Positions 20,578 through 29,419 of a DNA stretch of 64,000 nucleotides are shown piece by piece; positions within the stretch are counted from its first letter, which is position 1, and each line of letters opens with the position of its first letter. The stretch comes from an uncultured Oxalobacteraceae bacterium (lineage in GTDB: Bacteria > Pseudomonadota > Gammaproteobacteria > Burkholderiales > Burkholderiaceae_D), in the NCBI GenBank assembly GCA_903862415.1, contig CAIOYD010000077.1, positions 60,454 through 124,453 on the forward strand. Reading direction: 5' to 3'. The position numbers were made by a program, and so were the translations under genes. Below the pieces are notes generated by a model. The model searched no databases. It had not been told where the DNA came from and worked only from the letters and a program-made list of their open reading frames with translations.

Positions 20578-20760
20578 TTACCAATACCTGATGCAAATGC
20601 AGGACGTGAGAGTGAGGCGATGCGCTTATTTTTGGCCGATAATGGCGCCTCCATTCACTACACGGCGCCCGAAGCAATTCAAACCATGTCAGACCTGGCT
20701 GCGGGGACGCTTACTGAACAGCAGTTTGCACATTGGCTGCGCATCAGAAAAACTACTTAG
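20578..20760 (+). pseudogene. 3' remnant of a doc (death-on-curing, Fic-fold) toxin gene
   Basis: The translation LPIPDANAGRESEAMRLFLADNGASIHYTAPEAIQTMSDLAAGTLTEQQFAHWLRIR aligns by eye with the phage P1 Doc C-terminal half (HIFNDANKRTALNSALLFLRRNGVQV...GAATGEISVSSVADTLRRL). The motif His and everything upstream are missing. Confidence 0.45.
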
Positions 20761-21508
20761 CTTTTTTAGTCGCCAACTCGGTAGCTTCCTGAATATTTTT
20801 CTCCGCCAGCTTCACTTCCATCTCGGGAGCCACGGCCACCACCCGCTTCCAGAAGCCGATGGCCTGTTTATAATCAGCGCGCTCAAAAGCTTCACTGCCG
20901 GACAGTTGCAGCGATTTGATATGTTTGGGATCGAGCGCCAGCGCACGTTGCAACAAGGTACGTGCTTCGGCATCCCAATGACCTTGATTGGCGACGACCT
21001 TAACATCCACCCAGTCAGCCAGCAAACCGGCATCCGGAGGTAACAACGCGGCAGCTTTGGCATAAGCGTCGGCCGCGGGACCGGCCTGTGCCAACTCCTT
21101 ATAGGTCCGCGCCAGCAACAGCCAGCCGTCGCCATTGTTCGGAGTCTCGGCCATTTTGGCAGCCAGATGTTTCACCGCCGTATTCAGATCACCACCATTT
21201 TTGCCCGCGGCTGGGGGTGGAAATGGCGATGGCGCCTGAGTTGCGGCTGCAAATGGTGGTGCCGAGGGAGGCATGACGATATGCGAAGCACTCACCTCTG
21301 AATGCGGCAGTGCCGCCGTGGAGGCTGACAAATTCGGCTTACTGAGTTGCGCATACACCGTCAGCGCTGCCAGAGTCAACAGCGAGGGTGCAACCCAGTG
21401 CAGTGACAACAGCCATCTGGCATCGTTAGCAGCAACGGCAACAATCAACCAGCGGGAAAACAAAAACAGCAGCACAGCCACAACGCTGGCAATCAGCAAA
21501 ATTAACAA
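20753..21508 (-). CDS. CcmI/CycH/NrfG-like TPR protein (putative apocytochrome c chaperone), membrane anchored
   Basis: It has two N-terminal hydrophobic segments. The TPR region GDGWLLLARTYKELAQAGPAADAYAKAAALLPPDAGLLADWVDV...LLQRALALDPKHIKSLQLSGSEAFERADYKQAIGFWKRVV matches the CcmI C-terminal consensus. Confidence 0.65.
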   Translation of the reverse strand: MLILLIASVVAVLLFLFSRWLIVAVAANDARWLLSLHWVAPSLLTLAALTVYAQLSKPNLSASTAALPHSEVSASHIVMPPSAPPFAAATQAPSPFPPPAAGKNGGDLNTAVKHLAAKMAETPNNGDGWLLLARTYKELAQAGPAADAYAKAAALLPPDAGLLADWVDVKVVANQGHWDAEARTLLQRALALDPKHIKSLQLSGSEAFERADYKQAIGFWKRVVAVAPEMEVKLAEKNIQEATELATKKAK

Positions 21509-21558
21509 ATTCTCTCTCCGGCTAACTTAACAAGGGATCAATCAACGCATTTTTTAAA

Positions 21559-26698: not shown

Positions 26699-26703
26699 CC
26701 CAC

Positions 26704-28533
26704 TCAGCGATTACGTTTCCAGTTGACGGCGGTATGACAGCGTTCACACTGCATACTAAACTCGCCATTATGTACATCATCTTTTCGGTGACAGCTAAAA
26801 CAGGTCATATTCATCCGACCGGTCAGCGGTGCCGTATGACAGGCATCGCAGGCTACTTTTTTATGCCCGCCGTCGAGGGCAAAACGGGTACTGGCATGAT
26901 CAAAATCCCAGGAACTCCAGGTGCCGGTGTAATGGCAAGATTCACATTTGGTGCCCAGACTGCGCTGATGGCGATCATCTTTCTGATGACAGGAATAACA
27001 GTCTGAGCGCACATCACGGAACGCCGGGGTCTGGTGACATTTTTTGCAGTCGGTTTTTACATGACTGCCGGTCAGGGCGAAACGTGCCTTGTTGTGATCA
27101 TAGGGAGCATCCTGCCAGCGCTTTTCGTTATGACAGGATTCACACTGACGACCGAGCTGGTTTTTATGCTTATCATCTTTCAGGTGACAGGAAACACACT
27201 GGCCCGGCAGTTTAACTTTCTGATACAGCGCGCCTTTTTCAGGCAAATGGCAACTGTCACATTTGACCAGCACATGCCGGGCTTTGAGTGGGTAGCTGGT
27301 GTCGCGGCCGTGATCAAATTTGGACGCGATCCAGTTTTTTTCCGTGTGACAGCTGTCACACTTGTTGCCGTAACGTCCCTTGTGACCTTTTTCCTGATCA
27401 TCTTTGCGATGACAGGCAACACATTCTTTTTCCAGCTTGATTTTCAGCGTCGCTGTCGCGCCCGAGAGTCCGCCACGATGACAGCTTTCGCATTTGGCAT
27501 CGCGGTGTTTGTCATGCAATGGGAAGCTGGTTTCGTCGTGATTGAAACTGGAATTTTTCCAGCCCCGCTCATTGTGGCAGCTGGCACATTTCTCACCCAG
27601 TTCACCCTTGTGACCTTTTTCCTGATCGTCTTTTTTGTGGCAGCTGATACATTTATCGGACAGTTTTTGCTGATACAGCGAACCTTTTTCCGGCAGATGG
27701 CAACTGTCGCACTTAACCTGATGGTGCTTACCTTTTAATACATAATGGGTATCGACATCGTGATTGAATTTGGTTTCTTTCCAGCCTTTATCAGTGTGGC
27801 AGCTGCCGCACTTGATTGAATAGCGACCTTTATGACCTTTTTCCTGATCGTCTTTTTTGTGGCAGGAATTACATTCCAGCGGCGCATTAGTGTAAACTTT
27901 ATTCGCATGGCAGCTTACACATTTGGCATCAAAGTGCTTGCCACCAGCCAGTGGAAAACGGGTTTTTTCGTGATCAAAACTAACTTCTTTCCAGGATTTT
28001 TCCGTGTGACAGCTGGCACACTTGATACCCAGACTACCCTTGTGGCCTTTTTCCTGATCGTCTTTTTTGTGACAGTCGTTACACAGTCTGGAGGCGGCGC
28101 GGAACTTGGTTTTTTCGGCATGACAGCCAGCGCACTTCACCCGACTCTCAGCGTGCGCACCTTTGAGGGCAAACTCGGTGCGACTGTGATCAAAGGTGGT
28201 TTTATCCAGTTTGGCCAGATGAGCCTGACGCCCCTTGTGTTCGGTATGGCAGTTGCGGCAGGACGAATCTTCCAGACGACCATGAAAGCGGGTTTTATTG
28301 CTCACATCGGACGACACGTCCTTATGGCATTCCAGACACAGACGAGTCTGGAGGGTTTTGTCGAACTTGGCATGACATTGACTGCAGTCATTTTCATATT
28401 TGGCGTGATCGGCAATCAGTTCACCCGGCATCAAGGCTTTTTCAAACGTATCGGCGTGCGCCTGCCCGGTCAGCATGACCAGCAGCAGTAACAGCGATAA
28501 TGACAGCCTAGTAAAGATGCACTGCAATAACAT
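26704..28533 (-). CDS. Periplasmic multihaem cytochrome c, 24 CxxCH motifs (eight c7/c3-like trihaem modules)
   Basis: I counted 24 CxxCH motifs in the translation. The repeated signature is C..CHKKDDQEKGHKG....KC.SCH....W....F.H. The signal peptide MLLQCIFTRLSLSLLLLLVMLTGQAHA follows the ATG I chose at 28533. Confidence 0.9.
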   Translation of the reverse strand: MLLQCIFTRLSLSLLLLLVMLTGQAHADTFEKALMPGELIADHAKYENDCSQCHAKFDKTLQTRLCLECHKDVSSDVSNKTRFHGRLEDSSCRNCHTEHKGRQAHLAKLDKTTFDHSRTEFALKGAHAESRVKCAGCHAEKTKFRAASRLCNDCHKKDDQEKGHKGSLGIKCASCHTEKSWKEVSFDHEKTRFPLAGGKHFDAKCVSCHANKVYTNAPLECNSCHKKDDQEKGHKGRYSIKCGSCHTDKGWKETKFNHDVDTHYVLKGKHHQVKCDSCHLPEKGSLYQQKLSDKCISCHKKDDQEKGHKGELGEKCASCHNERGWKNSSFNHDETSFPLHDKHRDAKCESCHRGGLSGATATLKIKLEKECVACHRKDDQEKGHKGRYGNKCDSCHTEKNWIASKFDHGRDTSYPLKARHVLVKCDSCHLPEKGALYQKVKLPGQCVSCHLKDDKHKNQLGRQCESCHNEKRWQDAPYDHNKARFALTGSHVKTDCKKCHQTPAFRDVRSDCYSCHQKDDRHQRSLGTKCESCHYTGTWSSWDFDHASTRFALDGGHKKVACDACHTAPLTGRMNMTCFSCHRKDDVHNGEFSMQCERCHTAVNWKRNR

Positions 28534-29419
28534 GAGCAATTCCAGTGAAGAGCAGCAAATAAATAAACGGCACATGAGCAATGTGCCAGAGCGAAAATAA
28601 TTTCAGCCAGTTGGCCAACTGCGAATACTGAATAATGGCGTCAATATAGTTATCCACCTGATCCTTGGCCATCACATAGTTGAGTCGCAACTGTGTTTTG
28701 GTCCACTTTTGCTTAGCGGCTTCCTTGCCGAGGGTAACTTTAACCGCATGCCGGATCTCGCGTGCCAGCACTTTTCCCTGATGGCGCAAGGTCATAAAAC
28801 GCCACATGCGTTGCGGCATACCATCCAGAGGCGCGGTCGAATACGCATGAAACGTTTTCAGACGCTGTTCAATCACCGGACTTAGCGAAAACACCGAATC
28901 AATATTTTGCTGACTCCAGTTAAGCAAACCTTCCGCTCCGGCCAGGGTCAATTCCTTACCATACAGGCCACGGTGAATATGGCGGTAAACAAAGCGCCCG
29001 ATGACACCGCTGAGCGCCACCAGCAACATCGAATACAGCGCAATACTGCTGTTCATCGAACCGATTTTAAAGGTCGAGTGAAACAGAATCAGCACCGGAC
29101 CGCCTATCCCCATAAACATGTGATAGCGAAACCAGGCTTCCATCCGCCCCAGACGATCAAGCATGCGCACCCGTTTGCGCAACGGATACAGCAGCATGCT
29201 GAGCATCATCAAACCACCAGCCAGACCCAGGTTGTAACCCAGATTGGAACCCGAAGTGAATAAATGCCCTGCTGCCACCAGCCACGCCAACACCAGCACA
29301 AAAAAAATCAATACTGCTACTGAACTACGCCAGACCCACAACATCAGCTTGCCAGATGGCTGACCTTCTAAAGAAATAGTGCTCATTTGAATAAAAAGTT
29401 GTGACGCAATCCGGCTCAC
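28508..29419 (-). CDS. Integral membrane protein, putative dihaem b-type cytochrome (electron entry/exit at the inner membrane)
   Basis: It has about five TM segments. Two helices each carry His-x13-His (YHMFMGIGGPVLILFH and AHVPFIYLLLFTGIAH). It is the first gene of the cytochrome operon. The start is either GTG at 29419 or ATG at 29386. Confidence 0.55.
   Translation of the reverse strand: MSRIASQLFIQMSTISLEGQPSGKLMLWVWRSSVAVLIFFVLVLAWLVAAGHLFTSGSNLGYNLGLAGGLMMLSMLLYPLRKRVRMLDRLGRMEAWFRYHMFMGIGGPVLILFHSTFKIGSMNSSIALYSMLLVALSGVIGRFVYRHIHRGLYGKELTLAGAEGLLNWSQQNIDSVFSLSPVIEQRLKTFHAYSTAPLDGMPQRMWRFMTLRHQGKVLAREIRHAVKVTLGKEAAKQKWTKTQLRLNYVMAKDQVDNYIDAIIQYSQLANWLKLFSLWHIAHVPFIYLLLFTGIAHVIAVHLY

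Follow-up and report, generated by a model that had tools for sequence, protein, structure and literature searches.

A PCC3-Type Multihaem Cytochrome Locus in an Uncultured Oxalobacteraceae Bacterium and Its Conserved Fe-S Flavoprotein Neighbor

Introduction

This report concerns a cluster of genes for multihaem cytochromes (MHCs) in an uncultured Oxalobacteraceae bacterium of the order Burkholderiales (NCBI GenBank assembly GCA_903862415.1). The DNA analyzed is a stretch of 64,000 nucleotides of contig CAIOYD010000077.1 (positions 60,454 to 124,453 of the forward strand), called the window from here on, and all coordinates are those of the window unless another sequence or locus is named. Five consecutive open reading frames (ORFs) on the minus strand, listed at 28508-29419, 26704-28581, 23963-26698, 21559-24045, and 20753-21508, encode an inner-membrane protein (IMP), two MHCs, an outer-membrane barrel protein (the porin), and a protein with tetratricopeptide repeats (TPRs). 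An earlier reading of the letters and their translations, which we call the sequence-only reading, regarded these five genes as a complete electron conduit across the cell envelope. All five are indeed present, but a sixth conserved gene, encoding a membrane-anchored Fe-S flavoprotein, lies just outside that interval. In other words, the conserved unit consists of six genes and reaches to 31008.

The cluster belongs, with high probability, to the type known as PCC3. It was described in 2017, with further surveys in 2023 and 2025, so the window provides a further example of something already known. PCC3 has repeatedly been cited as candidate machinery for iron oxidation or extracellular electron transfer. 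Its proteins are among the most haem-dense known, and it is widespread, with an IMP family of 3038 representatives at 50% identity. What is new here is the flavoprotein neighbor, the clade-wide presence of the TPR gene, and the constancy of about 24 haems in one cytochrome against 13-91 in the other, which ends in a cap bearing a CX4CH motif.

Gene Order and Its Conservation

The six genes and the divergent intergenic region are collected in Table 1. As the sequence-only reading had it, the five minus-strand genes are tightly packed: a 26-nt overlap (28508-28533) is followed by three gaps (5, 4, and 50 nt). Junctions of this size result when the gene for the first cytochrome starts at 28533 and the porin gene at 23958. 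Database gene calls give an identical start for the cytochrome and place that of the porin at 23949, which makes the protein 3 residues shorter. For the IMP gene, a start at 29386 rather than 29419 is most likely, in agreement with all homologues and with the database gene call.

Table 1. Genes and intergenic region of the PCC3-type locus (aa, amino acids; TM, transmembrane).
Feature	Coordinates	Strand	Basis
Membrane-anchored Fe-S flavoprotein, 431 aa	29713..31008	+	Pfam Pyr_redox_3 and Fer4, TM anchor, adjacency
AT-rich divergent intergenic region, presumed promoters	29387..29712	.	Sequence
Inner-membrane protein (IMP), 292 aa; longest ORF to 29419	28508..29386	-	Motifs, five predicted TM helices
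Periplasmic 24-haem cytochrome c, 609 aa	26704..28533	-	Sec signal, 24 CxxCH
Second (proposed outer/extracellular) cytochrome c, 911 aa	23963..26698	-	Sec signal, 32 CxxCH and CSSSGCH
Outer-membrane barrel protein (porin), 799/796 aa	21559..23958	-	AlphaFold2 model
Membrane-anchored NrfG/CcmI-like TPR protein, 251 aa	20753..21508	-	PF23914 TPR_CcmH_CycH

For comparison, an IMP profile was used to collect 80 loci from species-representative genomes, and these loci, with flanks of 10 kb, were annotated by tblastn and ORF analysis. They come mostly from Rhodocyclales/Azonexaceae, Sulfuricella, Oxalobacteraceae/Undibacterium, Methylophilaceae, and Gallionella, and the best-matching ones are those of Oxalobacteraceae bacterium GrIS 1.18 and Sulfuricella. 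The order of IMP, MHC, MHC, and outer-membrane protein is conserved across the 80 loci, and the porin gene follows that of the second cytochrome wherever this could be tested (36 of 36 loci).

Components of the Predicted Conduit

The translation of the IMP contains the motifs WFRYH-x13-H, SGVIG, and WHIAH-x13-H. Hydropathy and AlphaFold2 secondary structure agree on five long membrane helices, with the two WxxxHx13H motifs on TM3 and TM5 and SGxxG on TM4. Across 20 aligned homologues (51-75% identity), W85, H89, H103, S126, G127, G130, W267, H268, H271, H285, and H290 are invariant. The earlier description of a protein of roughly five TM helices with two His-x13-His helices is confirmed. The loop between TM4 and TM5 is a basic helical domain of ~110 aa, which AlphaFold2 models confidently. 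According to the positive-inside rule this loop should be cytoplasmic, and one His pair would therefore lie near each face of the membrane, which is the geometry of a di-haem b carrier. The IMP is thus a putative transmembrane di-haem b electron carrier. No Pfam or NCBIfam family matched the IMP itself, and the 20 homologues gave only faint matches, to Ni_hydr_CYTB in five (best E 0.15) and to DUF4405 in two.

The first cytochrome has a Sec signal and 24 CxxCH motifs, and the second has a Sec signal, 32 CxxCH motifs, and one C-terminal CSSSGCH (CX4CH), exactly as the sequence-only reading had counted them. The haem motifs of the first, one per 25.4 aa, are arranged in eight tandem c7-like trihaem modules of ~70 aa that match Pfam Cytochrome_C7; no PDB chain was matched significantly by its sequence. 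The 33 sites of the second (28.5 aa per CxxCH site) are arranged in dihaem repeats of ~52 aa with exactly two His per haem, and the protein is rich in T (14%), A (11%), S (9.5%), and G (8%), which together make up 43% of its residues. The 33-haem protein also matches the NCBIfam nanowire trihaem domain (nanowire_3heme), and between them the cytochromes match the Pfam models Cytochrome_C7, c3, and MtrC domain II/IV. In 2000 composition-preserving shuffles per protein, the mean number of haem motifs was 0.3 and the maximum 3-4, and only one further CxxCH occurs across the ORFs of at least 100 aa in the window. The motif counts are far beyond chance. In the orthologues of the second cytochrome, the ratio is about 2.0-2.1 His per haem; we infer that all 57 c haems of the window are bis-His ligated.

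The two cytochromes differ in how constant their haem numbers are. The first has 24 motifs in 54 of 70 complete orthologous copies (18, 21-23, or 27 in the others). The number in the second ranges from 13 to 91, and the 33 of the window are near the low end for its clade. The largest number is found in three loci from metagenome-assembled genomes of Azonexus (L010, L023, and L041; ~2390 aa, e.g., L010 11547-18704), and exceeds the 85 haems of the record second MHC highlighted in 2017 (PMC5566968). The numbers cluster at 33, 39, 61, 63, 77, and 91, which suggests that repeat blocks have been gained and lost. On the other hand, the C-terminal cap DCSxSGCH[RK]PLGxKGxxYxxW[DN] is kept in 35 of 41 copies, and for this reason the CX4CH motif that it bears is not a chance occurrence. 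These observations suggest that the first cytochrome is a periplasmic “ruler”, and that the second, with its conserved cap and variable number of repeats, is anchored at one end and adjustable in how far it reaches outside, like an antenna.

For the porin, an AlphaFold2 model based on a 43-sequence alignment (mean predicted local distance difference test, pLDDT, 83) comprises a signal peptide, a beta-sandwich-like domain (residues 46-151) followed by a disordered linker of Pro/Ala/Val (160-218), TPR helices like those of BamD/YfiO (223-311), and, at 334-795 (pLDDT about 90), a barrel of ~22 strands that carries a helical insert at 573-603. The beta-barrel that had been proposed for residues of about 330-800 is therefore present in the model. 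By contrast, the AMIN-like domain proposed for the N-terminus is not supported, because Pfam AMIN is absent from the window protein and from all 43 homologues. Among these homologues, Pfam matched OMP_b-brl in 21 and YfiO in 21, and matched MtrB/PioB, BcsC, and PgaA in none. One porin homologue (P0224, 1035 aa) bears AAA_22 domains and is possibly a fused gene call. Foldseek comparison with the PDB returned only generic large outer-membrane barrels with low TM-scores (MOMP, FimD usher, FadL, and porins).

The last gene of the minus-strand series encodes a TPR protein whose N-terminal hydrophobic/TM segments form a membrane anchor. It reaches 70.6 bits against PF23914 TPR_CcmH_CycH (curated cut-off 42), and its best natural PDB match is Escherichia coli NrfG (2e2e, E=2e-11). 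The description of a membrane-anchored CcmI/NrfG-like TPR protein was thus accurate, with the restriction that NrfG itself is excluded by a score of 49 against the cut-off of 306 for NF007692. The gene lies directly 3' of the porin gene in 13 of 26 testable loci, all with at least 47% IMP identity to the window, and also follows the porin gene in Sulfuricella denitrificans skB26. Like NrfG and CcmI (CycH) of System I maturation, the protein combines a membrane anchor with a TPR domain (TPR_CcmH_CycH family) in the periplasm, and its gene adjoins those of its presumed client cytochromes. Unlike them, it is not adjoined by NrfEF or CcmFH genes, and its clients would carry ordinary CxxCH motifs (plus one CX4CH), whereas NrfA carries CXXCK. 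Its putative role is that of a dedicated chaperone of apocytochromes in haem attachment.

Assignment to PCC3

PCC3 was defined by a porin, an MHC that is extracellular, one that is periplasmic, and a protein of the inner membrane (He et al. 2017, Front Microbiol 8:1584, PMC5566968). According to that study, the extracellular MHC is repetitive and rich in T/S/A/G, with a median of 34 haems (10-85 reported), the periplasmic MHC has a median of 21, and the IMP of ~300 aa has 5 TM helices, with SGXXG on TM4 and WX3HX13H on TM3 and TM5 (PMC5566968). In the Gallionellaceae, the periplasmic subunit has 21, 24, or 27 haems and the outer one 10-35 (Hoover et al. 2023, mSystems). The sequence features of this definition are all found in the window. 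The genes for the IMP, the 24-haem and 33-haem cytochromes, and the barrel protein follow one another on a single strand, none of them overlapping or spaced by more than 50 nt; the 292-aa IMP has the three motifs and five predicted TM helices; the periplasmic MHC falls in the 21/24/27 class; the second MHC is a low-complexity protein of the expected composition, built from dihaem repeats; and a modelled outer-membrane barrel stands beside the cytochromes. We therefore assign the locus to PCC3 with considerable confidence.

The sequence-only reading had likened the gene order to that of the PCC3 clusters of Fe(II)-oxidizing Gallionellaceae, and the order is indeed that of Sideroxydans lithotrophicus ES-1, in which an IMP (Slit_1446), a 24-haem and a 28-haem cytochrome, and a porin are encoded by Slit_1446-1449 (PMC12016527, PMC8788666). 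The emphasis on this family was too narrow, however, since the relatives of the locus are mostly Rhodocyclales, Sulfuricellaceae, and Oxalobacteraceae. With SCD_n00974 of S. denitrificans skB26 the porin shares 66% identity, and that strain also has the six-gene layout (AP013066.1, 976-998 kb). The text of He et al. names this strain as PCC3-bearing at the genome level (PMC5566968); a Sulfuricella entry was not found in the text-form supplementary tables of that paper. The host of the window is not a known iron oxidizer, and its nearest relatives belong to the Oxalobacteraceae and Sulfuricellaceae. Published descriptions of PCC3 give four genes, to which the window and most of its relatives add the divergent Fe-S flavoprotein, and the window and its closer clade the NrfG/CcmI-like TPR gene; nothing essential differs. 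The flavoprotein, the TPR protein, and the adjacent locus tags are unmentioned in those PCC3 papers whose text could be searched, and the neighboring locus tags of ES-1 were likewise not found in the searchable literature. The earlier remark that PCC3 is experimentally uncharacterized still applies, as the cluster was called “functionally unverified” in 2025 (PMC12442390), a point that also weighs against the mechanism proposed below.

The Conserved Flavoprotein, a Possible Inner Partner

The sixth gene is divergent from the other five. Its product starts with a hydrophobic anchor at the N-terminus, behind which come R/K residues; a ferredoxin-like domain and a thioredoxin-reductase (TrxR)-like FAD/NAD(P) domain make up the rest. 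The anchor with its R/K residues would place the flavoprotein domain in the cytoplasm. Pfam finds Pyr_redox_3 (E=2.5e-44) and Fer4, and the best PDB matches are YpdA/Bdr (7a7b) and TrxR-like ferredoxin-NADP reductases. The score against the NCBIfam YpdA equivalog (154) is below the cut-off of 340 and thus indicates membership of the fold family only. The flavin domain has GxGxxG and GGGDSA motifs, a single Cys after residue 167, and no redox CxxC. The protein is therefore not a disulfide reductase, and resembles in this the TrxR-like ferredoxin-NADP reductases.

The cluster-binding motifs of the ferredoxin-like domain are non-canonical: in CxGSGACxxxCP the Ser is found in 51 of 60 orthologues, in CIGHGACxxxCP the His is found in all 60, and CxxHxxCxxxCP is invariant. 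These motifs suggest that the protein may hold a [3Fe-4S] and/or a His-ligated [4Fe-4S] cluster.

In 61 of the 72 loci that could be tested, the flavoprotein gene is next to that of the IMP, 56 times divergently and 5 times on the same strand after IMP and MHC; four of the five loci from Gallionella/Gallionellaceae carry it, as does S. denitrificans skB26. It is also the best conserved member of the unit, with a mean identity to the window protein of 64%, against 55-60% for the 24-haem protein, 49% for the IMP, and 45% for the porin. Its divergence correlates with that of the IMP (r=0.82) and that of the 24-haem protein (r=0.90), just as closely as the divergences of accepted components correlate among themselves. 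An Fe-S gene has been noted upstream of the analogous IMP in another cluster type, PCC4 (He et al. 2017, PMC5566968). We consider it a nearly even question, with the balance slightly on the negative side, whether the flavoprotein is the inner partner of the IMP.

It should be mentioned that five of the loci lack a PCC3-type porin (L062, L065, L074, L077, and L080; e.g., L080 2940-13624, with Aromatoleum toluvorans Td21 among the hosts). In these, the IMP, an 18- or 21-haem cytochrome, and the flavoprotein are encoded on one strand, beside a divergent set for a tetrahaem cytochrome, an NHL-repeat beta-propeller, an unknown protein of 681 aa, and a 12-haem cytochrome, which is like the Uet set. 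These observations indicate that the IMP, the MHC, and the flavoprotein form a portable inner module.

Relations to Other Electron-Transfer Systems

The sequence-only reading had seen neither an MtrA-like decahaem cytochrome nor an MtrB-like barrel in the window, and the profile searches agree. Scores of 33.5 and 119.3 bits are reached against TIGR03508 (MtrA/DmsE; cut-off 192.2), in partial, repeated matches, and 67.5 against TIGR03507 (OmcA/MtrC; cut-off 209.3). With the Mtr models below their cut-offs and MtrB/PioB missing from the 43 porin homologues, homology to MtrAB was rejected. The similarity to MtrCAB, MtoAB, and PioAB lies in the predicted architecture: a periplasmic multihaem wire that would be sheathed by an outer-membrane barrel and joined by an outer multihaem partner, all haems presumably bis-His, with Pfam MtrC/MtrF domain II/IV-like haem-packing motifs. 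The cytochromes of the window carry 24 and 33 haems where MtrCAB has 10 and 10; the proposed outer one is not a lipoprotein, and the partner in the inner membrane is a putative b-type 5-TM protein instead of CymA. The barrel of MtrB has 26 strands (PDB 6R2Q), and that of the window porin ~22.

Three further comparisons are useful. First, the tandem c7-like trihaem modules of ~70 aa in the 24-haem protein recall the c7-type polymers of Geobacter (the GSU1996 family, proteins with “nanowire” trihaem domains), although there are eight modules instead of four and the genomic context differs. Second, the IMP shares with NOX/FRE and with MsrQ (which works with Fre) two His-x13-His pairs on two TM helices, which would hold one haem per membrane face, and would share a cytoplasmic NAD(P)H flavoprotein partner with a periplasmic acceptor, a coupling that in the window is suggested by synteny only. 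It differs from NOX/FRE in that no Ferric_reduct sequence or fold match is detectable, in that it has 5 TM helices, of which TM3 and TM5 bear the His pairs and TM4 and TM5 are joined by a large loop, and in that the flavoprotein is a separate TrxR-like/ferredoxin fusion, whereas NOX/FRE has an FNR-type domain fused to the membrane part. Third, the Uet conduit of “Ca. Tenderia electrophaga” and Gallionella likewise combines a porin with multihaem cytochromes, and the five porin-less loci pair the inner module with a Uet-like set. The NHL-repeat, tetrahaem, and undecahaem genes of Uet are absent from the window, and the likeness is contextual and confined to the relatives.

Proposed Mechanism and Competing Explanations

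The explanation that we put forward, at somewhat less than even confidence, is a six-gene PCC3 conduit with a NOX-like inner module. Its more secure part is that the locus encodes a conduit across the envelope, as the sequence-only reading had argued from the logic of porin-cytochrome modules; the gene anatomy, the barrel model, the PCC3 match, and the synteny support this, and we regard it as probable. In the proposed scheme, the flavoprotein at the cytoplasmic face would exchange electrons with NAD(P)H via FAD and two non-canonical Fe-S clusters and would dock on the basic cytoplasmic helical loop of the IMP. The IMP would stack two bis-His b haems across the inner membrane, as in NOX/FRE, MsrQ, or NarI, and the 24-haem chain of eight c7-like modules would bridge the periplasm. 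The ~22-strand barrel, held by its periplasmic TPR and beta domains, would sheathe the crossing of the outer membrane, and the 33-haem all-bis-His cytochrome, docked by its CX4CH cap, would extend the wire outward over a length tuned by the number of repeats. The NrfG/CcmI-like TPR protein may present the very long apocytochromes to the haem-ligation machinery. Outside the cell, the favored electron sinks would be Fe(III), Mn(IV), humics, or other cells, and the wire itself should be reversible.

As regards the direction, we tentatively prefer a net outward flow of electrons, and this preference may well turn out to be wrong. Outward disposal is favored over Fe(II) oxidation because the inner end appears to be wired to pyridine nucleotides and because the 57 c haems would all be bis-His. 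Inward transfer from Fe(II) to NAD(P)+ is thermodynamically implausible, as it would run against both the potential and the membrane voltage; if the flavoprotein is the partner of the IMP, outward flow is therefore favored. An outward flow also agrees with expression data from ES-1, in which the PCC3 genes of both clusters are down on Fe(II) relative to thiosulfate (PMC8788666) and the PCC3 proteins are low or undetected on magnetite (PMC12016527). The hosts include heterotrophs and Fe(III)- or anode-respiring lineages, such as Ferribacterium, Georgfuchsia, and Azonexus, and this range fits outward flow in a weak, circumstantial way.

Several observations weigh against this explanation. The IMP has no significant Pfam, PDB profile-search, or Foldseek match (nothing below E=0.9), and its TM region is modelled poorly (AlphaFold2 pLDDT about 55-65). 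The di-haem b fold and the likeness to a ferric reductase domain are argued from motifs. Fusion of the IMP to a flavoprotein or Fe-S domain was not seen among ten of the longer family members (406-679 aa), and the divergent adjacency of the flavoprotein could come from co-regulation or co-transfer instead of physical coupling. About 15% of the loci lack an adjacent flavoprotein and have NHL-repeat, plain TrxR-like, or unrelated genes upstream instead. The second cytochrome, proposed to be exposed at the surface, has no lipobox, and the type II secretion system of the window (3851-15230) is not syntenic with PCC3 in any of the 80 related loci. Finally, PCC3 is enriched in Fe(II)-oxidizing Sideroxydans, in which it occurs in 59% of the genomes (Hoover et al. 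2023), and the IMP of PCC3 copy 2 is up in Sideroxydans CL21 oxidizing iron (PMC12442390).

The last two points also count in favor of the model published by He et al. (2017, PMC5566968), in which PCC3 is an uptake conduit of four or five genes: electrons from extracellular Fe(II) or reduced minerals pass through the cytochromes to the IMP, which hands them on, as a quinone reductase, to the respiratory chain, and the flavoprotein would be functionally unrelated. The layout of two His pairs is also shared by quinone-reactive cytochromes b, with which the faint Ni_hydr_CYTB matches would agree, and about 15% of the loci have no adjacent flavoprotein. Nevertheless, the ES-1 data described above point the other way, most carriers in the survey are not known iron oxidizers, and no quinone-site motif was identified. 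Moreover, the model leaves unexplained why the best-conserved and co-diverging neighbor in 85% of the loci is an Fe-S flavoprotein. On this evidence we consider uptake of this kind unlikely, while taking it seriously.

A less probable alternative is that the system is confined to the periplasm, where the giant cytochromes would store electrons, the “capacitor” role suggested by Hoover et al. (2023), or donate them to a reductase of a soluble substrate, while the barrel serves another purpose. Neither cytochrome is a lipoprotein or has a recognizable secretion signal beyond Sec, and units of IMP, MHC, and flavoprotein do exist without a PCC3-type porin. Those porin-less variants, however, adjoin another outer-membrane cytochrome/NHL module, the porin follows the second cytochrome in every testable locus, and a conserved cap with 13-91 haems fits an outward-projecting element better than one limited by the space of the periplasm; we therefore hold this alternative to be improbable. 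That the barrel is a polysaccharide-export porin of the BcsC/PgaA type or a pilus/usher porin, standing beside the cytochromes by coincidence, is suggested by its N-terminal TPR region, like those of BcsC and PgaA, and by the FimD usher among the Foldseek matches, but is essentially refuted and was rejected, since BcsC, PgaA, and usher models are unmatched in the 43 homologues, BcsC/PgaA-type barrels are absent from the top 50 Foldseek matches, the low TM-scores are spread over all large barrels, the synteny with the cytochromes is strict, and glycosyltransferase, synthase, or pilus genes are absent from the conserved block.

To return to the six-gene conduit with outward flow, its boldest form is that PCC3 is a split NOX-like wire from NAD(P)H to the outside, independent of quinones and not a quinone-coupled iron oxidase, with an inner unit that can be plugged into Uet-like modules; we offer this as a speculation that we ourselves rather doubt. 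If the flavoprotein is the inner partner, the quinone pool would be bypassed, and the system would probably serve redox balancing or metal reduction, not lithotrophic Fe(II) oxidation. A reading wired to NAD(P)H would also explain the puzzling expression data of Sideroxydans. Experiments on PCC3 should thus include the Fe-S flavoprotein of the cytoplasmic side and, in one clade, the dedicated NrfG-like maturation factor.

Neighboring Genes in the Window

In the divergent intergenic region, a perfect 9-3-9 palindrome, AATGATTGTAAAACAATCATT, is located at 29621-29641. It is the only copy in the window and was equalled in 3 of 100 shuffles. The palindrome was not found in 60 related intergenic regions; for this reason the idea of a conserved operator was rejected, and it may be a lineage-specific operator.

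At 3851-15230 on the minus strand, about 5.5 kb from the cytochrome operon, lies a complete type II secretion (Gsp) cluster with genes for N_methyl pseudopilins, GspK, L, M, N, D (secretin), E, and F, and a C-like protein. The type II secretion system of Shewanella puts MtrC/OmcA on the cell surface. A second secretin/pilus-type cluster (34735-48907, plus strand) encodes an ExeA/MshM-like AAA_22 ATPase with a SPOR domain, a secretin, a TPR protein, an MshE-type ATPase, a T2SSF platform protein, prepilin-type proteins, and several unassigned ORFs. A link between the conduit and these secretion systems was dropped, because neither cluster is syntenic with PCC3 elsewhere; the HD-GYP and PAS kinase genes, the HTH-Fic pair, and a DAHP synthase gene are likewise not conserved beside PCC3 elsewhere.

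Genes related to cyclic di-GMP occur near PCC3 in several lineages. In the window, these are two DUF3391-HD-GYP paralogues and a PAS histidine kinase (2256-3515, 15810-17732, and 17737-19044, all on the minus strand). In many Rhodocyclales loci, a membrane GGDEF gene lies between the flavoprotein and IMP genes, and in S. denitrificans a GGDEF-EAL gene is found downstream of PCC3; examples in related loci are L012 8852-9841 and L081 14856-16472. Between the operon and the HD-GYP gene, an Xre-type helix-turn-helix (HTH) gene and a Fic/DOC gene overlap by ~10 nt (19531-20570, plus strand); the pair looks like a toxin-antitoxin system and lies in a stretch of lower GC content (0.46).

On the other side, the flavoprotein gene is neighbored by two small ORFs of 142 and 221 aa (31343-32559, minus strand). 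The larger has a weak match to LcrH/SycD-type TPR chaperones; neither is conserved beside PCC3 elsewhere. A cluster for leucine/isovalerate catabolism (48993-55692, minus strand) encodes methylcrotonyl-CoA carboxylase alpha and beta, enoyl-CoA hydratase, acyl-CoA dehydrogenase, and a BKACE enzyme, and suggests that the host is organotrophic and not obligately lithotrophic. ARAGORN and Rfam detect a single RNA gene in the window, a tRNA-Met (CAT) gene at 864-940 on the minus strand.

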